Source of the DNA: Longimicrobiales bacterium | Lineage (GTDB): Bacteria; Gemmatimonadota; Gemmatimonadetes; Longimicrobiales; Gaopeijiaceae | Reading direction: 5' to 3' | Assembly (NCBI GenBank): GCA_965203485.1 | Contig: OZ241892.1 | Coordinates: 2,496,001-2,560,000 of the forward strand | Length of the DNA stretch: 64,000 bases | Translations under genes and position numbers: made by a program | The notes under the pieces: model-generated | Told to the model about the DNA's origin: nothing | Seen by the model: the letters and a program-made list of their open reading frames with translations, nothing else | Databases searched by the model: none | In this document: piece by piece, positions 5,960-20,059 of the stretch | Layout of the letters: each line of letters begins with the position of its first letter | Numbering within the stretch: position 1 is the first letter of the stretch

Positions 5960-7770
5960 TTCGCCTTGCCCAGGTCTTCGGCCAGAGCCTGGCGGGCTTG
6001 GCCCACCAGATGCGCCACCTTGTTCGCCTGCCGCTGCAGCTCGGAGAGCACGAAGGGCATGCGTTCCGGATCGGATTCCTCCATGGCGGGCACCTCCAAG
6101 GCGCTGGCAAGCTTCGGCAACGGCCGCAACGGCAACGCCGGATCGTGCTCGAACCGGTCGCCCAAGGAGTAGTTCAGGGGCACGAGCGCGCGGCCCAGCC
6201 GCAACAGCGCCGCATTGATGCGAGCCGGATCGCCAGCGCCCTTCCTGATCCGCTGGTACAGCGCGTCGATCCGCTGGACGATCGCGTTGAACTCCATCCG
6301 CAACGGCTTGAGGTTGAGCCGCTTGCCCAAGGCCGCCTCGTACTCTGCGAGCGCCTCGTCCAGCTCCTTTGCGGTCTCGCGAAAGTCCAGCGGCAAGACC
6401 TCGTCGGTGAGGAAGCGCCCGATCGCATGGGAGTACACCTTGAGGTCGCGCACCAAGTTGTCGCGGTCGGCTACGTTGATGCGGTCCTTTTCGGTGTGCC
6501 ATGCGATGTTGCCGCCGCATCCGCCCACCGGGTAGAAGCCCAGCCGGGCCCGCTCGTCCGCCGGAATGTTCGAGAGCAGCATGAAGAACGACGACAGCCC
6601 CAGCTGGTTGAACGAGTAGTCGCCCGCCCGGGACGGCCTTCGGCGGACCGGGTTCTTCTTCGTGACGGCCTTGATCGCGCTCTTGCAGACGGCGCCCGTT
6701 TCCGCCATCCACGCCACTTCGTCGTACTCGGTCGCCCGCCAGCAACCCGGCGAATCCACGTTGACGGTCGCCACGCAGTAGCGCGACAGGTCGATCGCGA
6801 AGCGGTCCGCGAACCACGCCGATCCGCCGTAGCGGCCCGTCGAATGGCCGGGCCACCAGGCCACCTTGAGCGAGCGGCGGAGAAGCGCCCTGTTCTCGTG
6901 GAACACCCGCGCCAGCTCCAGCAGCGTCGCGTCGCCCACGGCGTTGTCGCCGATGCCCACGTCCCACGAGTCGTAGTGGCCGTGCGCGAGGACGTATTCC
7001 TCCTCCTGTCCGTGGACGTGCGCGACCGGAAGAAGGCACGGATACCAGGCCTCGTCGAGCCTCGCGTGCACGGTCACGCTCTCAAGGCCGTCGCCCAAGG
7101 CCGCGAGAAGAGCGTCGCCGTCGGGACGGTTGATCGCCGCGATCGCCGTCTTCGGCAGGTCCGCGCGCTGGGAGTCCCCGGGCGTGCCCCAAACGGTCGT
7201 GCAGGCGCCCCAGTGGACCCGGCTGCCGGGATTGACGTACACCTGGGCGAGCGCTCCCGCCTGTTCGAGCCGAGCGACCGACGACGACGACGGAAAGCCC
7301 TCCACCACCGCGATCTTGCCGACCAAGTCGGGGAGCTGCTCGGGGCCCTCCTCGTCGACGGGGCCGGCTGCTCCCTCGGCGGCGGCGGCCGGCACGTGGA
7401 CCGCGGGCGCCGACACGCCCTCCTGGGGCGTGGATCGCGAAAACGAGGGCGGCTTGGCCTCGAAGCGGAGATCGCCCGCCTCCACGGCGCCCTCGCGCGG
7501 AATCGACAGATAGAGTTCCGGCTCGTGGACCTCGTGCGGGATGCCCAGCGTCTCCAGGCGCGAGGCGATGAAGCGCGCCGCCGTCCGCTCGTCGAGGGAG
7601 CCCGATTCGCGGACGAGGATCGAGAAGCGCTCGATCAGGCTCCAGCCGAGATCGAAGGACGCCGCGGCCTCGAACGCCTCGATGGGGCTCTGTTCTTCCG
7701 CTCCCGTCTTCTCGGCTTCGGCCTTGGCCTTGGCTTTGGCCCTTGGCGCGACGGCGTTGGCCTTAGCCAC
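5956..7770 (-). CDS. M28-family peptidase with PA domain
   Basis: HGHYDSW, GIGDNAVG, NVDSPG and WHTEKD zinc-peptidase motifs; PA-like GKIAVV segment. Confidence 0.85.
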   Translation of the reverse strand: MAKANAVAPRAKAKAKAEAEKTGAEEQSPIEAFEAAASFDLGWSLIERFSILVRESGSLDERTAARFIASRLETLGIPHEVHEPELYLSIPREGAVEAGDLRFEAKPPSFSRSTPQEGVSAPAVHVPAAAAEGAAGPVDEEGPEQLPDLVGKIAVVEGFPSSSSVARLEQAGALAQVYVNPGSRVHWGACTTVWGTPGDSQRADLPKTAIAAINRPDGDALLAALGDGLESVTVHARLDEAWYPCLLPVAHVHGQEEEYVLAHGHYDSWDVGIGDNAVGDATLLELARVFHENRALLRRSLKVAWWPGHSTGRYGGSAWFADRFAIDLSRYCVATVNVDSPGCWRATEYDEVAWMAETGAVCKSAIKAVTKKNPVRRRPSRAGDYSFNQLGLSSFFMLLSNIPADERARLGFYPVGGCGGNIAWHTEKDRINVADRDNLVRDLKVYSHAIGRFLTDEVLPLDFRETAKELDEALAEYEAALGKRLNLKPLRMEFNAIVQRIDALYQRIRKGAGDPARINAALLRLGRALVPLNYSLGDRFEHDPALPLRPLPKLASALEVPAMEESDPERMPFVLSELQRQANKVAHLVGQARQALAEDLGKAK

Positions 7771-8496: not shown

Positions 8497-8759
8497 GTTC
8501 CCTCTCCTTTTTCGCGTCTGTGTCGTGTCGCGGCTCCGTCGGCGCCCCCGGGTGCGAGGGGCGCTGCAGGCTCTGGAGCGTCGCTCCGGCCGTCGCAGTT
8601 CCATAAGATAAGCTTGCGGTGCAACTGCGACCGTTCGCCTGCGGGCCACGCGGCCAACCCAGCGGCCCGCGACCGTTCCGGCCGACGGGGAGCGATCGTC
8701 CGGCAATCGCTGCGGGACAACGCTCCGAGCCGCGCCGCGACGGCCCCTTGCTCCGCCGG

Positions 8760-11000
8760 ATGCCGGAGAACCGCTTGGCCCAGACTCGTCCCGACTCGCC
8801 GCGCGCCGCCCCGGGTCGCCGGAGCGCGCCACCCCGAGGCGGGCTACGGCCGAGCCATTGGACGCCGGCCGCGGCTTCCATGGTTGTCGCCGTGGCGCTG
8901 GTAGGCGGGGTTGCGTTCCTGGTCGACTTGGCCCCGCGCGTGGAGGCCGACTTCTTCTTTGCGCCGGACGATCCGCAACTTCGCGCCTCGCGGGCGCTGG
9001 CCGAGCGGTATCCGGCGGGTGAAACGCTGATCGTCCGAGCCGAGGCGCCCGACATCGACGCGCCCGGATACGTGGCGCGCGTGGAAGCGCTTGGAGTTGC
9101 GCTGGATTCGCTGCCCGGGGTCGAGAGCGTGTTCTCGGTCGCCAGCGAGAACCGGTCGAGTCCCCTTTGGGGCCGGATCCTGACGCCGCCCGGCGGCCGC
9201 GCGACCAACGTCGTGGCACAACTCGGGCAACACGACGCGGAAGCGTTGGCGGACCGGGTCCGGACCGTGCTCGACGCGCATCGGGGGGCGGACTTCGCGC
9301 TGGCCGCTTCCGGCGTGCCCTTGATCGTGCAGCTGATCCGCCAGGGCTTGGCGCGCGACCTTGCCGTGTTCAGCACGGTCGCCTTCCTGGCGTTCGGGCT
9401 CGTCGCCGGGCTGGTCTACCGAGACCCGCGGGTCGTCGCCGGCACGCTCCTCGCCTGCGTCTCGGCCAGCGCGGCCACGCTGTTGGCAACGGCGGCGGCC
9501 GGCATCGGCGTCGGGCTGCTGACGGCCAACGTCGCCACCATCGTGTTCGTGCTGACCTTGTCGCACACGGTCTTCTTGGCGGCGAACTGGACCGAGGCGC
9601 CGCAACGAGGCGGCGCCCGCCGAAGTCGCGCGGCCGCCGCCGTCGCGCGCACTGCCGCTCCGTCGGCTTGGTGCATGGTCACGACGGCGCTCGGGTTCTC
9701 CAGCTTGCTGCTCGCTCCGGCGCGCCCGCTTCGCGAACTCGGCGCGGCGGGCGCCATCGGGACCGCCATGGCGTTCGCCTGCGCATTCACGATTCTGCCG
9801 GCGTGGCTGGCGGGCGCGCGTGTCCGCTCCTCGGCCGCCGGTCGGCAACTTGCGGCCGCCCGCCTGCCTGCATTCGGCGCGCGCGGACTGGTCCTGCTCG
9901 CGCTCGTGGTCGGCGGAGCGGGCGCGGGCGTTCTTCGTCTGAACACCGATCCCCCCCTGCTCAGCTACTTCGATCCTTCGGGGCCGATACGCCCCGGCCT
10001 GGAGGCGATCGACCGCGAGGGCGGCAGCAGTCCGTTGCTCTTCGCCGTCGGCGGCGCGGACGGCGAGCGCCTGGACAACATGTCCGCCTACGCGCGGCTG
10101 TGGGAGCTGCAGGATTCCCTCGAGGCCGACCCTGCCACCGGCATCGTGCTGTCTCCGGCGCCGTTGCTGGCCCATGCGCGCGAGCTGCCGCTGGCCCGCT
10201 TCCTTCCCGTGTCGCTCTTGCTCGGAATGCTGGAACGCCCCGAGACGGGCGACATCGCCCGCGGCTACTTCCGCGAGGACCGCCGCGAAGTCCTCTACTC
10301 GGTCCGCATGGTCGAGGCGGACAGGACCGAGAACCGCGACACGACGATCGCCCGGCTCGCGGCCCACGCCAACGCCGCCGGCCTCCGGGTCAACGCGACC
10401 GCGGGTCTCTTCGAACTGCAGCGCCACCTTGGCGAACTGATCGCCACGAGCCTCAAGACGGGCATCGGCGGTCTGCTGGGGCTGTTTCTTTTCGTCGGGC
10501 TGGGCGTCGCCCGGAGCGTTCGTGGAGCCGCCGCGATGCTCGTCTGTCTCCTAGCCATCCCGGCCATGGTGCTCGGCGTCTTCGGCCACCTGGGCGTGGC
10601 CGTGGACATCGTCGCGTCCCCCGCCGCGAACGTCGCGCTCGCCATGGGCGTGGACTCGATGATCCACGTCGCGATGCGGGCGCGCCGTGCCCACCCAACT
10701 CCGCCGTCGGCCTCCCGGCGCATCCGTTCGCAACGAGACGGCGGCGTAGACCACGACCGCCCCCGCACCGAAGGCGCGCACGCTTGGACCGACGCCGCCT
10801 CCGCTCTAGCCAAGCCAGTCGCCGCCGCCTGCGCCATCGTCTGCGTCGGCTTCGGCATCTTCGTCCTCTCGGACTTCCCGCCCACCCGCCGCTTCGGGCT
10901 GGCGGTCGTGCTCGGCACGGCGACCGCGTGCTTCGTTGCGCTGTTCGCGTTGCCAACCCTCGTGGAACGCCGCAACGGCCCCGGCCGCGCACGCGGTTAA
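8760..11000 (+). CDS. MMPL/RND-family transporter
   Basis: Two repeats of a periplasmic domain plus TM bundle; MGVDSMIH, TTALGFSSL and SDFPPTRRFG motifs. Start uncertain (8760 or 8880). Confidence 0.85.
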   Translation: MPENRLAQTRPDSPRAAPGRRSAPPRGGLRPSHWTPAAASMVVAVALVGGVAFLVDLAPRVEADFFFAPDDPQLRASRALAERYPAGETLIVRAEAPDIDAPGYVARVEALGVALDSLPGVESVFSVASENRSSPLWGRILTPPGGRATNVVAQLGQHDAEALADRVRTVLDAHRGADFALAASGVPLIVQLIRQGLARDLAVFSTVAFLAFGLVAGLVYRDPRVVAGTLLACVSASAATLLATAAAGIGVGLLTANVATIVFVLTLSHTVFLAANWTEAPQRGGARRSRAAAAVARTAAPSAWCMVTTALGFSSLLLAPARPLRELGAAGAIGTAMAFACAFTILPAWLAGARVRSSAAGRQLAAARLPAFGARGLVLLALVVGGAGAGVLRLNTDPPLLSYFDPSGPIRPGLEAIDREGGSSPLLFAVGGADGERLDNMSAYARLWELQDSLEADPATGIVLSPAPLLAHARELPLARFLPVSLLLGMLERPETGDIARGYFREDRREVLYSVRMVEADRTENRDTTIARLAAHANAAGLRVNATAGLFELQRHLGELIATSLKTGIGGLLGLFLFVGLGVARSVRGAAAMLVCLLAIPAMVLGVFGHLGVAVDIVASPAANVALAMGVDSMIHVAMRARRAHPTPPSASRRIRSQRDGGVDHDRPRTEGAHAWTDAASALAKPVAAACAIVCVGFGIFVLSDFPPTRRFGLAVVLGTATACFVALFALPTLVERRNGPGRARG

Positions 11001-11151: not shown

Positions 11152-11883
11152 CTAGAGCTTCAAGATGTTGTCCTCGCGCCGGTAGTTCTCGACCCCTTTG
11201 CCCATCCAACGCGAGGAGAGGACGATCATGCAGGCCGCGAACAGGATGCCGAGCGCCAGGCAGACGGCGATCCCCAGCGGGGACGCAACCCAAGCGGCGA
11301 TCGCCGCGATCCGTTCCGCGTCGAAGTAGGGCGCGAGGGCAGGTCCGACGATCCGGTCGCCGACGAAGGCCACGACGAAGGACGCGACGAAGAACAACGC
11401 AATGAGTTTTTCTGCGCGAAACCGCAGACACGTCGCCGAGGCCAGCGACGCCAACACCCAGCTGACGCCGCACAAGGCTGTCAAGGCGACGGCGAAGCCC
11501 CCGGCGCCCCACCACTCGAGAGAGGCGAACGGCGCCCACAGGTAGGGGGCGGTCACCAGAACGGCGAACACCGCCAGCGCCGCCAGCGCCGCCACCCGCG
11601 ACGCGCCGTGGACGTCGGCGGTCACGGGCAGGGACTTGAGAAACTCGAGATCGCCCGAGTAGCGGTCCTTCAGGGCGTTCGAGTATCCGAAAGCAGCCGG
11701 TCCCACGAGCGCCGCCGCGATCGCGGCGGCCGACGACGACACGTCCTCCATTATCGCGGTGAGCGCCAGCGGCATCACGATGCCCATGAGGGCGATGCCC
11801 GTGAACGATCTCGCGTGGCGCCGAAGCTCCATCGCTACGAGCCGCCGCAACGCGAGTCTACTGTTCCGCTTGCAGTATCTCAT
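11152..11883 (-). CDS. ABC-2-type permease / immunity-like membrane protein
   Basis: About 6 TM segments and an EFLKSLPVT motif typical of ABC-2 permeases; overlaps the ATPase gene. Confidence 0.75.
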   Translation of the reverse strand: MRYCKRNSRLALRRLVAMELRRHARSFTGIALMGIVMPLALTAIMEDVSSSAAAIAAALVGPAAFGYSNALKDRYSGDLEFLKSLPVTADVHGASRVAALAALAVFAVLVTAPYLWAPFASLEWWGAGGFAVALTALCGVSWVLASLASATCLRFRAEKLIALFFVASFVVAFVGDRIVGPALAPYFDAERIAAIAAWVASPLGIAVCLALGILFAACMIVLSSRWMGKGVENYRREDNILKL

Positions 11884-12574
11884 ACAGAAGAGCATGGAGG
11901 GGTTGGGACGGATCCCGGCTTCTGATCTCGCTCACGGTGCGGTCCGCGACCAAGCGTCCGTTCTTGAGGAACAGCACGCGGTCGGCGATCCGCTCCACGT
12001 CTTCGAGAAGGTGGCTGGAAAACAGCACGAGGCGGTCCCCGCCGGCCGGCGCGCATTCGTCGACGACCTTGAGGAGCTCCCCGCGCATGAGCGGGTCGAT
12101 CGCGGACGTCGGTTCGTCCAGGAGTAGCAGCTTGGGACGGTGCGCCTCGGCCGCCACAAGCGAAAGCTTCACCTTCATGCCCTTGGAGAGCGTGCCCACC
12201 TTGACCCGGGGCGGCACCGCGAGTCGGTCGAGCAGCTCGAACGCGTGCTGTTCGTCCCACGTCGGGAAGAAGTCGGCTAGGAAGCGCAGATGGCCGGCCA
12301 CCGTCATCCATTCGAGCGCCAAGAGGCTCTCCGGCAGGAAGCCGACCGACGCGCGCACACCCGGCATCAACTCGCGGACATCCCGGCCGTCAATGTCGAT
12401 TCGGCCGTCGTAGTGGGACATCTGGCCGGCGACGGCTTTCAAGGTCGTGCTCTTTCCGGCGCCGTTCGCGCCCACGACCGCGATCCGCTCCCCGGCCGAG
12501 AACGCGACGTCCAGGGGGCCGAGCGTGAAGGCGGGATAGCGAACTCCGAATCGCTTGAGCGCTACCGACGGCAT
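11858..12574 (-). CDS. ABC transporter ATP-binding protein
   Basis: Walker A GANGAGKST, signature LSKGM, Walker B LLLLDEPT, H-loop SSH. Confidence 0.95.
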   Translation of the reverse strand: MPSVALKRFGVRYPAFTLGPLDVAFSAGERIAVVGANGAGKSTTLKAVAGQMSHYDGRIDIDGRDVRELMPGVRASVGFLPESLLALEWMTVAGHLRFLADFFPTWDEQHAFELLDRLAVPPRVKVGTLSKGMKVKLSLVAAEAHRPKLLLLDEPTSAIDPLMRGELLKVVDECAPAGGDRLVLFSSHLLEDVERIADRVLFLKNGRLVADRTVSEIRSRDPSQPLHALLYEILQAEQ

Positions 12575-12587
12575 CCGGTTCTCCGGG

Positions 12588-13256
12588 CTAGTTCACCAAG
12601 CTCGCGCGCGCGACCGCGGCCGCCACGACCGCCGCCCACAGTCCCACGGCCAGCGAAGCCGAGCGGCGCAACGACATGGAGAATACCTCCCGCAACGCCA
12701 ACGAAAGGAACACCACCCACGCCAAGTGGGCAAGCGACACGCTCTGGGCGGCCGCCGCCAACAAGGGACGGTCCGGCGAGACCAGGGCAGCCAACCCAAT
12801 CGGACCCGCGAGCGTCTCGCGGCCCCCGAGCGCCACCGTCAAGTGCACGTAGAGCCCCGCGAACACGCCGCGCAACGCCATGAGCGCCTCGCCATAGAGG
12901 AAGACCGACAGCAATGGCCGCAGCCGCGCGCCGGAACTCAGGAAAGCCAATGCCGCCCATGCGAACGCGGCCAGCAAGCCCGCCTTGACCAGCGTCGTCA
13001 CCGGAGCCAGCGCGATCAAGATCCAGAACATCGTCTCCGCCGTGACCGCATCCGCAGCCTCGCCCGAAGCGCCGCCGAAGAAGACCGGCCGCAACGACAG
13101 CAGGGCGCCCACCGACACGACGAAGGCCGCCAACAGCGGCGGCAGCACCGGCTCTCTGCGGCGGATGTCCCGCAAGCTCGGCACCATCAGGCCGAAGAAC
13201 GTCTTCACGCGCGATTCCGGCGCGGACGGCTCGCCGGACACCAAGACGGCGATCAT
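12588..13256 (-). CDS. Yip1-like polytopic membrane protein
   Basis: 222 aa, about 5 TM segments; LRPLLSVFLY, PIGLAAL and LAWVVFLSLALR pattern resembles bacterial Yip1. ATGA overlap with the upstream gene. Confidence 0.65.
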   Translation of the reverse strand: MIAVLVSGEPSAPESRVKTFFGLMVPSLRDIRRREPVLPPLLAAFVVSVGALLSLRPVFFGGASGEAADAVTAETMFWILIALAPVTTLVKAGLLAAFAWAALAFLSSGARLRPLLSVFLYGEALMALRGVFAGLYVHLTVALGGRETLAGPIGLAALVSPDRPLLAAAAQSVSLAHLAWVVFLSLALREVFSMSLRRSASLAVGLWAAVVAAAVARASLVN

Positions 13257-13786
13257 CGCGGCATCCCCACAGCGTCCATGGCCTGCGCGAGTTGCCTCCG
13301 CGTCGACCGTCCAACGCGCACGATCCGGACCGTGTCCGTCCGGTCGGTCCAGTACGTGACCGGCACGTAGCGCACGGCCAGCGCGCGCGCAATGCTGCTG
13401 TCGGCGTCCGCGATCGCGCGGTTGCGCATGGCCGGCGGTATCCACGACATGTCTCCCCGAGCGTCCGGGGCCGCGATCACCCACACGTTGGCCCGGACGC
13501 CGTCTTCGATCATGGCTTCCCAGCGTGCTAGTTGCTCCTTGCAATACGGGCAGGTCGGCGTCGCATACATCAACGCGGACGGCCCCTCGAGGCTGGACTC
13601 CGACCGCCAGTCGTCGCCGCTGCTCGTTCGGCCCGCCAACGCCGGCAACGGCCATGGCGGCTCCGGCCCCGAAGACCGCTGCCCGCCGTCGACCAGCTTG
13701 AACGGCGCGACCACGCACACGGCCACGCCCAGACCAACTGCAAGTGCAATCAACTTCCTCGTTCTTGCCCCGTCCTTGTTCTTCAT
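13253..13786 (-). CDS. Membrane-anchored thioredoxin-like protein (CPYC)
   Basis: N-terminal TM anchor, YATPTCPYC, and the cis-Pro loop VRYVPVTY. Confidence 0.85.
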   Translation of the reverse strand: MKNKDGARTRKLIALAVGLGVAVCVVAPFKLVDGGQRSSGPEPPWPLPALAGRTSSGDDWRSESSLEGPSALMYATPTCPYCKEQLARWEAMIEDGVRANVWVIAAPDARGDMSWIPPAMRNRAIADADSSIARALAVRYVPVTYWTDRTDTVRIVRVGRSTRRQLAQAMDAVGMPR

Positions 13787-13808
13787 GCCGCTTCGTCTCC
13801 GCAGATGT

Positions 13809-13843
13809 GGCTCGGGACGCACCACCGGCGTGCCTCCCGAGCC
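13809..13843 (-). terminator. Strong intergenic hairpin between peptide genes and processing genes
   Basis: GGCTCGGGA...TCCCGAGCC perfect 9-bp stem, extended by GCAC/GTGC. No U-tract, so it may be a stabiliser or attenuator instead. Confidence 0.5.
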
Positions 13844-13886
13844 GGGTTCACCTCAGCTTTCCATGAGGGCGCCGTGTTGCCCCTTA

Positions 13887-14123
13887 CTACTTGCTAAGGT
13901 CGCACCTCGCGCATCGCGCGGGGAAGATCAGGCGATAGAACCAGGAGGAGCGACAGGCCGAACAGAAGAGAAGGTCTTCCTCGACCGGCCTGCAGACGAC
14001 CCAGTCGTCTTCGTCTATTTCCTGGGACTGCAACGGTGCGGGCGGGAGGCCCGTAGCGGCAGAGCCGGCCACGGCCGCGGCGAGAACGAAATGCGAGAAC
14101 TTCCATGCTTGCTTGGCTTTCAT
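13887..14123 (-). CDS. Secreted Cys-rich small protein (78 aa)
   Basis: GGAG RBS; MKAKQAWKFSHFVLAAAVAGSAA signal-like leader; mature part contains C, CSAC and CARC. Confidence 0.8.
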   Translation of the reverse strand: MKAKQAWKFSHFVLAAAVAGSAATGLPPAPLQSQEIDEDDWVVCRPVEEDLLFCSACRSSWFYRLIFPARCARCDLSK

Positions 14124-14181
14124 GATGTTTCTCCGATGTGGATGTGGATTCCTTGTTTTTCGGTTGATTCCTTGCGGCGAT

Positions 14182-14328
14182 CTAGAAGAACGCCGCCTTG
14201 CACGTTCCCACGCACGCCGGGACAATGACTCCGGCCGGCGATATCAACAGCATAGCCAGACCGAGCACGCTGCTGCCGCCCAGGGCGAGGATGGCTGCCG
14301 CGCAGCCTATGCATGCGACTTTGACCAC
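14182..14328 (-). CDS. Hydrophobic CxxC...CxxxC peptide C (48 aa; not in ORF track)
   Basis: AAAGGAG 6 nt before GTG. Translates MVKVACIGCAAAILALGGSSVLGLAMLLISPAGVIVPACVGTCKAAFF, with the same Cys pattern as the two upstream ORFs. Confidence 0.85.
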   Translation of the reverse strand: MVKVACIGCAAAILALGGSSVLGLAMLLISPAGVIVPACVGTCKAAFF

Positions 14329-14380
14329 TGCGAACTCCTTTCTCGTCTTGCACGAGGTTGATGTCTTCGATTGGCATCAG

Positions 14381-14539
14381 TCAGAAGAGACTGGCGCATG
14401 TGGCTACGCAAGCCAGGACCGCGAGGGTCGAGCCCGGAGTCGCGGCGGCCGCGAGCCATGCAGCCGGGCCGGCGGCCGCAAGCCCGATTCCGGCGGCCAC
14501 GCATCCTCCGCACCCCAACACCGCCAGCATCGTCTTCAT
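14381..14539 (-). CDS. Hydrophobic CxxC...CxxxC peptide B (52 aa)
   Basis: MKTMLAVLGCGGCVAAGIGLAAAGPAAWLAAAATPGSTLAVLACVATCASLF; ATGA-coupled to the upstream ORF. Confidence 0.85.
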   Translation of the reverse strand: MKTMLAVLGCGGCVAAGIGLAAAGPAAWLAAAATPGSTLAVLACVATCASLF

Positions 14540-14847
14540 CGGATTGCCCCCACAGCTGCCGCGCATGCGGCCACGCACGTCAGTGCGGTCGCAACCGCAT
14601 GTTTCGGGTTGCGGAGAAACCATCCCCAAACGGGCACGCCGATCATGCTGAGCACGGTCATCCCGGCCCCGACGGCAACGCACGTCAGGCATCCTTGCGT
14701 GGCTCCGAAGCCGCCGCCGCCGTCCTGTGCGCCGACCCCGGGCGGGGCGGTCGGCAACGCCGACGCGGACGCCGGCGCCGCGCCGAACGCGCTTGCGGTT
14801 GCCGTCGCCAGCAGGACGGCAAGCGCGGCGATGCGATGCTTACTCAT
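14536..14847 (-). CDS. CxxC...CxxxC peptide A precursor with Sec-type signal and pro-region (103 aa)
   Basis: AAGGAGGT RBS; signal MSKHRIAALAVLLATATASAFGAAPASA; Gly-rich linker; core CLTC-x34-CVAAC. Confidence 0.85.
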   Translation of the reverse strand: MSKHRIAALAVLLATATASAFGAAPASASALPTAPPGVGAQDGGGGFGATQGCLTCVAVGAGMTVLSMIGVPVWGWFLRNPKHAVATALTCVAACAAAVGAIR

Positions 14848-15691
14848 GTGCTACCTCCTTGTGGAGTGAATGAAAGTCCCCCGCGGCGAAGCGCCGCAGG
14901 AGCGGGGTCCGGCAACGTCCGGCAAGGAGGGTTCCTCGCCGGGCCAGCCCGCGTTGGACATGTCTGTTCGCGTGGAAAAGGCCAAGCCGCCGCGCCCGCC
15001 CCAAGCGCTTCGGCGCCGGACCGCTCGCCGCGCGCCAAGAGGCGACCCCGAGCGCAACCAGCCCCGCGAGCGCCAGAAGGGCGAAGGCGCGGCGGGGACG
15101 GCGGCGGTTGGGGGAGCTGCGCAGGAGCATGGGGCCAGGGGTCGGGGCGGTCGGCTGCAAGTCGTGGAGCAGACGCTAGTCAAACGCCTGGGACGCCTAC
15201 ATAGCTGGATGGGTCCGCTCTCGCAGCGTCCGCGGAGCCGCCGAATCGAGCGAAACGACAAGTCCAGCAAGGCTGTTCGGGCGATGCTCCCACTGGCGGC
15301 GCTCGCGCAGCTTGGCGCCCGCGACGAGGAAGATCTTGCGCAACGCGGTTGCGAACGGCCGATCAGCCGCGGGGCCGCCGCGATGCCGGCGGCGGGATTG
15401 ACCGAGCCCGAACCGGACGCGGACACGGAGCCGCGCTAGGCGTCTCTGCAAACGCGGTGGGCCTGATGCGAATTGATCGGGCCCGAACCGGACGCCGGGG
15501 CCGGGAGGCCGCCCGGACGAACCCGGACGCGTGGCGGCGCGACGGAAAGCCCGCACGGCCGGGAACCGAAGCGCATGCCGCTGCGACGGCGCGCGCACAA
15601 ACCGAAGCCGGAGGCTAGGCGCCAACAAGCGACTGCGCCAGCCTCGGCAGACCTGGAACGCGCGGTCAGGTCGCGAAGCCGCCCGCTTCCG

Positions 15692-16312
15692 CTACATGCC
15701 CTTCAGCGCGTCCAGGATGTCTTGGTTGGAAGGCCGGACGCGGTAGTCGGTCTCCACGAACTTCCACCTCACCACGCCGTCCCGGTCGAGGACGAACGTG
15801 GCCGGATGGGGAACGGGACGCCGCGGGGGGGAGTCCGCGTTGAAGAGTCCGTAGCGGTCGATGACGCGGTGGTCCGGGTCCGACAGCATCACGAAGTCGG
15901 GCCGGGCGCCACCGTCGGCCACGATCCGGTCGATCATCATCTGCTGCCTCTCCCGGTCGTCGACGGAAACCGTCACGATCGCCGTCCCTTCGCGGAGGTC
16001 CGGCGGCAGGAGGTCTCTCAGCTCGCCGAGCTGACGGGCGCAGTGCGGTCACCAGTGTCCGCGGTAGAAGACGAGGACGACGTTCTTCTCGCCCCTGAAG
16101 CCCGCCAGCGCCACCGGCGGCCCCTCGAAGGACTCCAGGACGAAGAGAGGCGCCTCGTCGCCGACCGAGACGCGCCCGAGGTCGGAGCCCGGCAAGTCGT
16201 TCCCGTCGGCCGGACCGAGGACCGGCTGTTGAGCCATGAGGCGCGAGGAGGGGGCAGTCGCGGCAACCGCGAGGGCCGCGGCCGTCGCGAGGGCCGGTGC
16301 GGTACGGATCAT
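15692..16312 (-). CDS. Peroxiredoxin-like (AhpC/TSA/redoxin) selenoprotein, Sec at TGA 16049-16051
   Basis: The two ORF-track pieces are in one frame: VVLVFYRGHW-TGA-PHCARQLGEL...PATFVLDRDGVVRW. TGA occupies the first Cys of CxxC. Confidence 0.9.
16018..16034 (-). promoter_or_regulatory. Putative bacterial SECIS hairpin
   Basis: UCAGCUC-GGC-GAGCUGA perfect stem with a G-containing loop, beginning 14 nt after the UGA. Confidence 0.7.
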
Positions 16313-16595
16313 GAATGAAGTCTGTCTGCTAGCGGGGTCGAGCTGATGAAAGGTTCGGCAACTCCGTGGCCATGCGACGGCGACGTTGCGCCTCCGCGAG
16401 TTGGCCGGGACCGCCGACGAAGTTGCACGCTTCAAAGATGGCGAGCCGCTCGGGCGGCCACAACCCGTCGCGCGCGGCGCCCGCGGCCGCCCTTGCCGTC
16501 CGGCCTGCGCGCGGCCAAGCTCCAAGCAGCGCCCGCGCGGTCGCTCTTCGCCGGCTCCGCGCCGCGTCCCCCGTCCTGCCGCCGCTCGCCTTCTC

Positions 16596-17741
16596 GTGCC
16601 CCTTCCCGAATCCATCTCCGGCGCGTCCGACGACGGCGTCTACTACCTGCACGGGGCAGACGAGTTCCGCAAGGACCAAGCGGCGAGGCGCCTCGTGGAG
16701 CGGTTCGCCGACGCGGGCACGCGCGACTTCAACCTGGACCGGCTGGACGGCGCCCGGACGACGGTCGAGCAGCTCGCGACGGTCGCGGCCACGCCGCCGA
16801 TGATGGCCGAGCGGCGGGTGGTGCACCTCGTCTCGGCGGAAGCGCTCGCGGGCAGCGCAAAGGCGCGCGCCGTTCTCCTGGACTTGGCCAAGAGTCCGCC
16901 CCCGGGGCTCGTCCTGATCGTGCAGGCGACGGTTCCGGGGCGCTCGACGGCCAAGTTCTACAAGGAGTTGGCGCGGCTCGCGACGACCGCCGAGTTCAAG
17001 GCGATACCGGAGAACGAAGCCCCGGCGTGGCTGGTCACGTGGGCGGCCGAGGAGCTCGAAGCAGTCGTCGAACTCGATGCCGCGAGGGCGCTGGCGGCGG
17101 CGCTGGGATCGAACCTGGGCATGCTGTCGAACGAGGTGCGAAAGCTGGCGGGGATGGTTGCCGACGGCGCGCCGGTGGATCTCGAAGCCGTCCGCGCGGG
17201 AGGATTCGAGATCGCCCGGCAGGATCGCTGGGCTTGGTTCGACGCGGTCGGGCGCCGCCGAATCGCCGAGGCGCTGAAGGGGCTTCCGGTCCTCGTGCGG
17301 CAGGGCGAAGCTCCGATCGCCCTCGTGAGCGGCCTGGCCGCGCATCTCCTGCGCATCGGAGTGGCGGCGGAAGGCGGCGCGAGCGCGTTGAAGGCCGCGT
17401 TGCCGCCGCACCAGAAGTTCCTGGCGAAGCGCTTGGCAAGCCAAGCGCGGCAGTGGAACCGCGCCGACTTGGCGGCCGCGGTCAGGAGGCTGCGACGGCT
17501 CGACCGCCTGCTCAAGGCGAGTTCCCTGCCCGGCGACGGGCTCTTGGAAGAGTGGCTCCACGGGGTGGCGGCCCGCGATGCGCCTGCCCGAGCCGGGCGG
17601 CGCCGGAAAGACCGGATGGCGCAGACGAGCGGCAGGCCGTCGGCGCGACGGAGGACGACCGCGGCCGCGCCGGGCGCCGACGACCGGGAGGAGTCGACGA
17701 CGGGGCGGACGAACTCCCGGCGCCGGGCAACGCGAACGTGA
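16596..17741 (+). CDS. holA: DNA polymerase III subunit delta
   Basis: [37 protein letters not shown] and LDRLLKAS motifs; Arg-rich C-terminal tail. Confidence 0.9.
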
Positions 17742-20059
17742 GATCGGACCAAGCCGGCCCGGGCGAGAGGACGGGCGCCGTCCAGGCCGCGGGCGCCGAA
17801 GTCGCATTGCGGATTTCGGGGATGCACTGCGCCAGCTGCGTGTCCTCCGTGGAGCGCGCTCTGGAGGGAGTGGCCGGGGTGGTCCGGGCGGAAGTCAACC
17901 TCGTGCAGGAGACTGCGAGAGTCCGGATCGCGAGCGCCGCGGAGGGCGTCGCGGCCGCCGGCGAGGCGATGGAAAGGGCGGTCGCGGCGGCGGGATACGA
18001 AGCCGCGGCGCTCGTCGGCGCGCAGGCGGAAGACGAGGCCGCGCGGGCTCGCGACGCCGGCCGCGACGAGGAGGTTCGCGCGCTGCTGCGGCGGTTCAGG
18101 GTCGCCGCGTTGTTCGGCCTGCCCGTGTTCGTCCTCGGCCACTGGGACATGATCCCGTGGCTGACGCCGATGAGCGAAGCGGCGCGGACCGGGGCGTGGC
18201 GCGCGTCCGCGCTGCTCACGGCGCCCGTTCTGCTGTACGCGGGTCGCGGCTTCTTCGCGGGCGCGTGGTCCGCCGGGCGGCGCGGGCGGTTCACGATGGA
18301 TTCGCTGGTGGCGCTGGGAACGGGGGCCGCTTGGCTTCAGTCGATGACGGTGGTCCTCGCGCCCGGCCTGCTGCCCGGCCAGCTGGGCAGGCCCTTCTTC
18401 GAGGCGGTTGCCGCCGTCGTCGCGCTCGTGCTCCTCGGACAGGCGCTGGAGGCCCGCGCCAAGGGACGCACCGCGCGCGCGTTGCGGGAGCTCTTCGCGC
18501 TGGCGCCCGACACGGCCGAGCGCCTTCGCGACGACCGAGACCAAGCGGAGACGCAGACCGTTCCCTTGGCCGAAGTGCGTCCCGGCGATCTCCTGCTGGT
18601 GCGCCCCGGCGGGCGCGTGCCGCTGGACGGCGTCGTCCGGTCGGGCGCAAGCGAAGTGGACGAGTCCATGCTCACCGGCGAGAGCTTGCCCGTCGCGAAG
18701 GCGGCGGGCGACGCGGTGACCGGCGGCTCGGTCAACGGCGCCGGCGCCCTGGTCGTGGAGGTCGTCCGCGTGGGAGAAGACACCGTTCTGGCTCGCATCG
18801 TGGACATGGTGAGGCGAGCCCAAGCCGCGAAGCCGCCGGTCCAGCGAACGGTGGACGCCGTGGCCGGCTGGTTCGTGCCGTCGGTCGTGGTGGTCGCGGC
18901 CGCCACGTTCGCGGCGTGGGCCGCGTGGGGACCCGAGCCGCGCCTGAACTTCGCCGTGGCGACCGCCGTGTCCGTCCTGGTCGTCGCTTGCCCGTGCGCG
19001 ATGGGACTCGCCACGCCCCTCTCGGTCATGATCGCGATCGGCCAAGCGGCCCGGCGCGGCGTATTGATCCGCGACGGCGGCGCACTGCAGCGGGCCCGGC
19101 GCGTGGACACGGTCCTCCTGGACAAGACCGGCACCGTCACCGAAGGCCGCCCCGCCGTGGCGAGCGCGCACCCGGGCCCGGCCCTCTCGGAGGCCGAAAT
19201 GCTCGCATGGGCGGCCAGCGCCGAGGCCGCGTCCGAGCACCCCGTCGCCCACGCGATCGTTCGGTACGCCGCCGAGCTGGGGACGCCGCTCCGTCCCGCC
19301 GAGCGCTTCGCCGCCCACCCCGGCCTTGGGGCTTCGGCGATCGTCGAGGGGAAACGCGTCCTGGTGGGGTCGGCCGCGTTTCTGGAAGGCGCGGGCGTGA
19401 AGTTGGAGGCGGCGGCGGCCACGCTGGCCGGTTTGGCGGAAGCGGGGCTGACGGCGGTGCTCGCGGCCGTGAACGGGAACCTGGTGGGCGTGCTCGGAGT
19501 GGAGGACCGCGTCCGGCCCGAAGCCGCGGCCGCCGTTCGGCGCCTCCAAGACCGCGGCATCGAGGTGCGGATGGCGACCGGCGACGAAGAGGGCCCGGCC
19601 CTGCGCGCGGCCCGGAGGGTTGGGATCGAGCGGGTGACGGCGAGGGCCTCCCCTGCGGAGAAGGCGGATCTCGTGGCCGGTTTGCGCGAGCGCGGGCGCG
19701 TCGTGGCGATGATCGGCGACGGCATCAACGACGGGCCGGCGCTCGCCCGGGCCGACGTGGGCATCGCCATGGGCGGCGGGACCGACGTGGCGCGCGAAGC
19801 GGGCGACGTCGTGCTGCTGGGCAACTCGCTGCGGGGAGCCGCGACGCTGCTGGGCCTGTCGCGCGCGGCAACGCGGAACATCGCGCAGAACTTGGTGGGA
19901 GCCTTCGCCTACAACGTCGTGGCGATTCCGGTGGCCGCCGGTCTGCTCTACCCGTGGACGGGCCTTCTGTTGTCGCCCGCCATCGCGGGCGCGGCCATGG
20001 CGCTCAGCTCGGTGACCGTCGTCGCCAACGCCAACCGCCTACGCCGCTGGCGGGGCTAG
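17738..20059 (+). CDS. copA: Cu(I)-translocating P1B-type ATPase
   Basis: GMHCASC metal-binding domain, TGES, CPC, DKTGT, GDGIND, YN and MALSS. Confidence 0.93.

Follow-up and report, generated by a model that had tools for sequence, protein, structure and literature searches.

A conserved Gemmatimonadota operon of paired four-cysteine peptides, a candidate two-peptide bacteriocin system, and its leader-reduced copy in a Longimicrobiales genome

Introduction

Gallocin A consists of two long, nearly uncharged disulfide hairpins that jointly permeabilise membranes and need a surface or extracellular thioredoxin; its precursors carry double-glycine leaders, and the system includes a peptidase-containing ATP-binding cassette (ABC) transporter (PCAT) and an immunity peptide (PMC10100652; this and the other reports cited are drawn on through the accessible part of their text). 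The C39 peptidase domains of bacteriocin systems have been described as cytoplasmic (PMC5093712), and FapD is a C39 peptidase that works in the periplasm with an unclear target (PMC5557850). Yip1 proteins occur with leaderless bacteriocins, both in the case of bawcin (PMC10707071) and in a survey of Actinomycetota (PMC11580447), and SpoIIM is the defining gene of clusters for circular bacteriocins (PMC8659200). Here, an operon of eight genes from a Longimicrobiales bacterium (phylum Gemmatimonadota) was analyzed within a window of 64,000 nucleotides (assembly GCA_965203485.1, contig OZ241892.1, positions 2,496,001 to 2,560,000), whose numbering is used below. It is one copy of a conserved, apparently undescribed operon, which we consider, with a probability of about 0.6, to encode a two-peptide (alpha and beta), disulfide-stapled, membrane-active bacteriocin with gallocin A-like action that would be matured outside the cytoplasm and has a leaderless offshoot in the genus of the window.

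No description of the operon was found in the full-text literature searched, which covered few subscription journals and no supplements, where cluster tables may carry generic labels. Nothing resembling it was found in the accessible passages of the surveys of marine Gemmatimonadota (PMC11316326), streptococcal class II bacteriocins (PMC11564875) and microcins (PMC12219008).

Results

The window carries one copy of a conserved operon

The eight genes are real and all lie on the minus strand. Re-reading of the open reading frames (ORFs) bore out both the span (11152 to 14847) and the gene order that a preliminary description, made from the DNA letters, had given. In the order of transcription, they are the following:

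14536 to 14847, minus strand: peptide A, 103 amino acids (aa), with a signal-like N-terminus, a short linker and a divergent CxxC-x34-CxxxC core.
14381 to 14539, minus strand: peptide B, a leaderless alpha peptide of 52 aa with CxxC-x30-CxxxC.
14182 to 14328, minus strand: peptide C, a leaderless beta peptide of 48 aa with a GTG start, a ribosome-binding site and CxxC-x29-CxxxC.
13887 to 14123, minus strand: peptide D, 78 aa, with a signal-like N-terminus, a polar core and five cysteines (C, CxxC, CxxC).
13253 to 13786, minus strand: membrane-anchored thioredoxin-like protein with a CPYC motif (Pfam thioredoxin-like, E 0.004).
12588 to 13256, minus strand: Yip1-like membrane protein (PF04893, E 9e-5).
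11858 to 12574, minus strand: ABC ATPase of the DrrA/PmtA type (PF00005, ABC_tran, E 6e-25).
11152 to 11895, minus strand: ABC-2-type permease (PF13346, E 0.01), whose start is possibly about 20 codons later.

Among these Pfam matches, only that of the ATPase passed the curated cut-off; its best NCBIfam match was PmtA, at 126 bits and far under the cut-off of 350. The GC content at third codon positions was between 0.77 and 0.91 across the genes of the operon. Purine-rich ribosome-binding sites were observed ahead of A, C and D, and the start of B overlaps the stop of A (ATGA), to which its translation would be coupled. No sigma-70-like promoter was found. Among sequencing runs, the region was contained in four from a single study, possibly the one that yielded the genome, and none of the four is registered as RNA.

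The recurrence of the operon was analyzed with several baits. When Yip1 was used, 5 of 60 relatives were matched, and in all five the peptides were accompanied by thioredoxin, ATPase and permease, with the gene order unchanged. Across 401 genomes of the phylum, Yip1 matches were strong in 20 and only weak in 3; among the further loci inspected, peptides were present in all 18 with a strong match and in neither of the two with a weak one, and the weak matches in G131 and G311 had none of the other operon genes beside them. A system of several peptides together with thioredoxin, Yip1 and ABC genes had been proposed from the window, with Yip1 as a bait for small cysteine-containing ORFs, and it recurred in all 23 relatives with strong matches. 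A profile built from the peptides matched the same 20 of the 401 genomes plus a borderline one (G048), and no orphan peptides were detected in the other 380; these positives are not independent of the profile. The 16 loci found with the C39 peptidase described below and not used for building the profile also carried the peptides, without exception. Presence is patchy, with 11 of 24 genomes positive within one genus.

A single C39 motif was then scanned over 185,579 species genomes and gave 59 loci, a scan that may miss distant versions. All 36 of the Gemmatimonadota loci contained the peptides, and 35 contained thioredoxin, Yip1 and ATPase, the contig of the remaining one ending early. Taking all 45 loci together, of which 41 are distinct, alpha stood immediately before beta in 41/41, and thioredoxin and Yip1 were present in 40. 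The conserved order was C39, alpha, beta, optional extra peptides, thioredoxin, Yip1, ABC ATPase and ABC-2 permease, the permease following the ATPase in the relatives as it does in the window. The operon genes of the relatives' loci were contiguous, and none was left without an assignment. As for individual loci, alpha is broken by approximately 2.5 kb of other DNA in L075 (7523-10721), and thioredoxin and Yip1 were each matched as two pieces in L066 (8966-11457).

The four-cysteine motif was found in none of the 23 C39 loci from outside Gemmatimonadota, of which the ORFs of six were read. One of these, from Neomarinimicrobiota (L091, 6833-9802), contains an anchored stand-alone C39, two precursors with a signal, a linker and DV-x-G-x, and a permease at the contig end. 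The precursors have Gly-rich cores with a cysteine near each end, one of them being frame-broken, and a secreted-looking protein of 222 aa is encoded between them. Another contig of the same genome (L130, 5839-8118) starts with permease, ATPase and Yip1, and we infer that the two contigs join into one cassette. No thioredoxin was seen on either contig. The possibility that the system has a cousin in Marinisomatota is put forward tentatively, at slightly less than even odds when taken together with the maturation route discussed below.

A large family of paired precursors

A search of 1.84 billion representative sequences gave 211 peptide clusters at 50% identity (E <=0.001). All 150 listed members of the family have four cysteines, and they split cleanly into 82 alpha (spacer mostly of 30 residues) and 68 beta (mostly 28) with none ambiguous, around a hydrophobic CxxC-x28/30-CxxxC core that is predicted to form a hairpin. 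Among the 141 full-length precursors, a hydrophobic h-region was present in 139, a basic n-region in 134 and an acidic linker in 104. The leaders end in V-x-G-x followed by G or Q, in 48/60 by a strict pattern and in 127/150 by a looser one that misplaced a few, and the N- and C-terminal tails of the cores differ in length across the family.

In many loci, one to four additional precursors share this leader and contain either two or four cysteines; the number of precursors per locus ranges from two to six. Extra precursors with two cysteines or a shorter spacer were observed in L067 (8323-9173), L071 (8368-9509), L072 (7531-8531), L073 (7642-8323) and L076 (7684-8773). Depending on the lineage, they follow beta or precede alpha, and up to six precursors were counted in one locus.

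In the window, peptides A, B and C all have a hydrophobic CxxC-x(34/30/29)-CxxxC unit near the C-terminus. No other hydrophobic C-terminal motif of this kind was found in the 3.56-Mb genome, three block-shuffled versions of which gave 1, 1 and 0. Peptide B scored 66 bits with the alpha profile and -1 with the beta profile, and peptide C scored 46 bits with beta and 15 with alpha. Peptide A fits neither profile and has no clear V-x-G-x junction. All three of the peptides put forward initially as cysteine-stapled have the motif, and the conserved unit is the pair of B and C instead of three equivalent peptides.

The sister genome (G001) and another genome of the same genus (G002) were compared with the genome of the window (G000), all three being about 95% complete and in one contig each. 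Peptide A is 46% identical to its copy in G001, with its four cysteines kept, and in G002 it is cut down to a cysteine-free remnant of 43 aa (L007, 8231-8362), with D duplicated (7033-7609). Strong matches to D were confined to these three genomes among the 151 of the family, and to six proteins in a large collection. A and D are additions of this genus, found there only, and D is an accessory. A weak match to D in G477 turned out to be a different secreted Cys-rich protein that is not in any such operon.

The peptides and their relatives matched no family in Pfam, a comparison suggested in the preliminary description, nor in NCBIfam, and the search of PDB sequences with the peptide profile gave one chance-level match (E 0.67); kinship to the described leaderless families was not detected by these searches, which short peptides can escape. 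In a cluster atlas, peptide A fell near unnamed clusters (0.81-0.82). The nearest named clusters of the atlas, LafA of lactacin F and the Blp class II bacteriocins (0.78-0.79), are a lead only. An alpha precursor had no match in a plasmid collection. AlphaFold2 predicted B and C as mostly helical with mid-chain breaks (predicted local distance difference test scores of 69 and 84, respectively). The fold search with B gave generic two-helix matches only (best Z 6.0, root-mean-square deviation 3.0, 50 aligned residues), and with C no match. These helical models fit a hairpin that would bring the two cysteine pairs together.

A stand-alone C39 peptidase precedes the peptides and is deleted in the window

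A stand-alone C39 peptidase gene lies immediately ahead of the peptides in 22 of the 23 Yip1-baited relatives, as a separate gene of 200-240 aa that is not fused to an ABC exporter. The 17 aligned copies all match PF03412 and have invariant Q, C, H and D residues. Each has one N-terminal hydrophobic stretch, with the more basic flank on its N-terminal side in 14. This single N-terminal stretch and the position of its basic side suggest that C39 is a membrane-anchored enzyme facing the periplasm. In the window, the following remnant was found:

about 14842 to 15219, minus strand: C39 remnant, in which the 5' part (basic patch and hydrophobic anchor) is fused to the 3' end and the catalytic Q/C/H/D region is gone.

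The DNA of its 5' part aligned with the intact gene of G002 with a score of 120, compared with 64 at most in 100 shuffles, and the 3' part was recognized by nhmmer (E 4.7e-5) and by blastn (73% over 131 nt). The remnant retains an open frame of 106 codons (14840-15160, minus strand) with one hydrophobic stretch, overlapping the start of A. No match to an intact C39 (PF03412) was found anywhere in the genomes of G000 or G001, and G002 has one. The initial statement that no C39 was recognised is therefore right only for an intact gene; the full system includes C39, and the internally deleted remnant just upstream is the reason why the peptidase was missed.

The window copy is a leader-reduced form

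Peptide B is leaderless in all three genomes of the genus, and C retains a long leader, ending in VVGA, in G002 only. Thus G002 keeps both C39 and the beta leader, and its relatives G000 and G001 are without both. In the window, B and C start at the mature-core boundary of the family, with no leader and no V-x-G-x junction. Since the full system has C39 and long signal-plus-linker leaders, the window copy is best understood as a derived, leader-reduced form of it. G000 and G001 grouped together with moderate support in the trees of ATPase and thioredoxin (89/74 and 93/89), which had 19 rows and left out five of the 23 relatives' loci. Leaderless alphas of 52 aa were also found in G001, G002, P0133, P0142 and P0145, so that the six, with B, are all of exactly the same length.

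Seven genes were compared between G000 and G001, at synonymous divergences (dS) of 0.56-0.99; their frames have stayed open, and none of the 17 peptide cysteines has been lost. The ratio of nonsynonymous to synonymous substitutions (dN/dS), a rough value in such short genes, was 0.15-0.35 for B (0.25 between G000 and G001), 0.16 for the ATPase and 0.36-0.43 for Yip1 and thioredoxin. The reduced operon gives no impression of being dead. The three genomes may show a leader-bearing system turning leaderless via intermediate steps, a reading to which we give a little under an even chance together with the maturation route.

Other features of the locus

The following element lies between the peptide genes and the machinery genes, where a hairpin had been noticed from the start:

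13809 to 13843, minus strand: strong stem-loop with no U tail.

For the 100-nt spacer, the z value was -2.3, and 4 of 200 shuffles were equally good. In 17 of 31 relatives, a stem of at least 12 pairs lay no more than 100 nt from the start of thioredoxin, coding-DNA controls also often reaching 12 pairs. A clean test of its conservation failed (21/31 upstream regions against 14/31 and 6/31 in the controls). A role as a stabiliser or attenuator of the mRNA is possible.

Upstream, an AhpC/TSA redoxin gene (15692-16615, minus strand) is interrupted by an in-frame TGA at 16049-16051, in the motif W-U-P-H-C. In every one of the 23 relatives' loci with a match to the motif, TGA stands at this position, and SelA and tRNA-Sec are both encoded in the genome; the redoxin is likely a selenoprotein. 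It had been suspected of being a regulator, and neither a two-component nor any other regulator was found among the conserved neighbours scanned. A gene for an MMPL-family membrane protein (8619-11000, plus strand) is convergent with the operon and was also found nearby in 6 of the 36 relatives' loci. At about 17600-20059 on the plus strand there is what we take to be a heavy-metal P-type ATPase, judged by eye from CxxC, CPC and DKTGT. The 14 ORFs representing the conserved clusters in and around the operon included no glycosyltransferase, radical-SAM enzyme or lanthionine synthetase, as first noted for the operon, the rest of the genome lying outside this search.

Discussion

Comparison with described systems

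The best match is with the gallocin type of two-peptide bacteriocin, which includes gallocin A, brochocin C, thermophilin 13 as well as ABP-118 (PMC10100652). Both have two adjacent precursor genes, a predicted or known leader removal of the C39 type, long and nearly uncharged Gly/Ala-rich chains, predicted or known to form helical hairpins, with cysteines near both ends, and an extracytoplasmic thioredoxin, here in 40/41 loci. Unlike that type, as far as the accessible account of it goes, each peptide here has four cysteines instead of two, the leader is a Sec-like signal with a linker of about 40-70 aa (or is missing) instead of a double-glycine leader of 23 aa, and a stand-alone anchored C39 and a Yip1/ABC-2 transporter take the place of the PCAT. 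There is also no small immunity peptide, the host is Gram-negative and no sequence match was detectable. The operon probably acts like a gallocin-type bacteriocin and stands outside class IIb by its leader, its transporter and its lack of an immunity gene.

As in the Fap system of Pseudomonas (PMC5557850), a C39 peptidase is predicted here to act in the periplasm on Sec-exported substrates, and it matches the FapD model weakly (E 0.012). Unlike FapD, whose signal is cleaved and whose role lies in amyloid secretion via FapF, it looks membrane-anchored and stands beside small hairpin precursors. The leaderless Yip1 loci share with the window the leaderless B and C alongside Yip1, ABC ATPase and permease, which is not true of the whole family. 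They differ in that the window has a pair predicted to be cysteine-stapled, with a thioredoxin, no HlyD-type gene, a charge of just +1/+2 in B and C, and a pair derived from leader-bearing forms still present in relatives (PMC10707071, PMC11580447). Class II microcins are likewise small Gram-negative peptides, some with disulfides, with processing of the C39 type; their short double-glycine signal and the export straight from the cytoplasm by PCAT, membrane fusion protein and TolC are absent from this operon (PMC12219008).

Proposed mechanism

Each precursor would be targeted by its Sec-type signal, with the acidic linker in the periplasm, and cut at V-x-G-x|G by the membrane-anchored C39 on the periplasmic side. 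The anchored thioredoxin may then form or shuffle two disulfides, one nested in the other, by which the hydrophobic helical hairpin is stapled at its ends. Yip1, ABC ATPase and ABC-2 permease would pull the mature hairpins from the inner membrane, for both release and self-protection, and alpha and beta would act jointly on target membranes and kill, with the fast-varying extra peptides widening the range. In the window, alpha and beta would be made without leaders, C39 having been lost and thioredoxin and transporter kept. Both forms would need the same last step, in which the hydrophobic hairpin leaves the inner membrane; this would account for the survival of thioredoxin, Yip1, ATPase and permease after the loss of C39. 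Small hairpin membrane proteins can be inserted by a YidC-type route with both ends out, and the leaderless B and C could reach the thioredoxin in this manner or via the ABC complex. The patchy spread, both in the 401 genomes and within one genus, and the two to six precursors per locus fit competition genes.

Several observations weigh against a bacteriocin. The operon has no conserved dedicated immunity gene: what comes straight after beta is thioredoxin or further leader-bearing precursors. Nor does it have a conserved outer-membrane channel, so that passage of the outer membrane is left unexplained. In one family, the operon occupies a fixed chromosomal site, next to one and the same redoxin gene in 25 of 36 loci, a less usual arrangement for mobile loci that encode weapons. 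The cores are near neutral (charge -1 to +1 in 109/150) and could be hydrophobic enough to simply stay in the membrane, and GxxxG is missing in 53/150 of them, and in B and C. At position -1 of the junction, R, Q, T or S is frequent and G or A is found in a minority, in contrast to canonical double-glycine sites, for which reason we read the junction as a relaxed double-glycine-type site. The thioredoxin has its anchor, and a simple count for the N-in topology was passed in 11/19 only. As regards the leaderless form, the joint loss of leader and C39 is one event, on a branch with moderate support, and makes no statistical pattern. In G002, where C39 is kept, B already has no leader. Between G000 and G001, dN/dS reached 0.91 in C and was about 0.6 in both A and D.

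Alternative explanations

The strongest alternative, which we consider unlikely, is that the same processing serves products other than weapons: components of the envelope or surface (surface-active, adhesive, for vesicles or for host interaction) or signals, delivered by the ABC complex. The near-neutral, very hydrophobic cores, the operon without an immunity gene and the fixed site in one family suit it, and FapD, a tested periplasmic C39, serves a structural amyloid system (PMC5557850). The patchy presence within a genus, the fast expansion of variable extra precursors, the resemblance to gallocin-type hairpins and the lack of a regulator among the conserved neighbours scanned argue for a bacteriocin instead.

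It is improbable that the four cysteines serve as ligands of a metal (Cu or Zn) or take part in redox reactions, with the thioredoxin keeping them reduced and the hairpins being small membrane metalloproteins. CxxC and CxxxC are common metal-binding motifs, the cysteine number of D is odd, one thioredoxin weakly matches DsbE-type reductases (E 0.001) and the selenocysteine redoxin is the usual upstream neighbour. This redoxin is, however, missing in 11 of the 36 loci, and the extra precursors with the same leader keep two cysteines, one near each end, which suits a staple better. The CxxC and a later V-P are invariant in the 19 aligned thioredoxins, whose motifs are mostly CP[YHF]C with V-P, the oxidase/isomerase type.

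The probability is lower still that the family is functional and the window copy a decaying relic that followed the loss of peptidase and leaders. The deletion of C39, the missing leaders, the high dN/dS of C, A and D and the remnant of A in G002 point in that direction. They are opposed by the kept frames and cysteines at dS 0.56-0.99, by the low dN/dS of B and ATPase and the intermediate values of Yip1 and thioredoxin, by the constant length of the six leaderless alphas and by the new ribosome-binding sites at the core starts.

Head-to-tail circular bacteriocins, in which C39 would remove the leader and Yip1/ABC assist ring closure, are very improbable: Yip1 and ABC genes are common in circular clusters (PMC8659200) and the hydrophobic helical cores of about 50 aa are similar, whereas C39, thioredoxin and four invariant cysteines set the operon apart, the termini are ragged, Yip1 also accompanies linear leaderless bacteriocins (PMC10707071, PMC11580447), and there is no SpoIIM/DUF95 gene in the operon, as noted initially, the only one of the genome (G000:C1:2301947-2302339) being unlinked and about 205 kb away, so that the comparison with circular bacteriocins drawn in the preliminary description gives way to the gallocin type.

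Implications

These results name a large peptide family without a family model, in a phylum of barely known chemistry. A new Gram-negative maturation route for antibacterial peptides, with Sec targeting, a second cut by a periplasmic anchored C39 at the relaxed V-x-G-x|G site, a double staple and extraction by Yip1/ABC-2 without a PCAT, may span Gemmatimonadota, which we regard as possible, if not quite as probable as its negation. If the proposed bacteriocin reading is true, it adds a way of making bacteriocins that would escape searches built around PCATs, double-glycine leaders or SpoIIM, periplasmic C39 peptidases would gain an evident substrate, which FapD lacks, and the operon would be a clean system for learning the role of Yip1 in bacteriocin loci. 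The intermediate steps in the genus of the window bear on the origin and export of leaderless bacteriocins.

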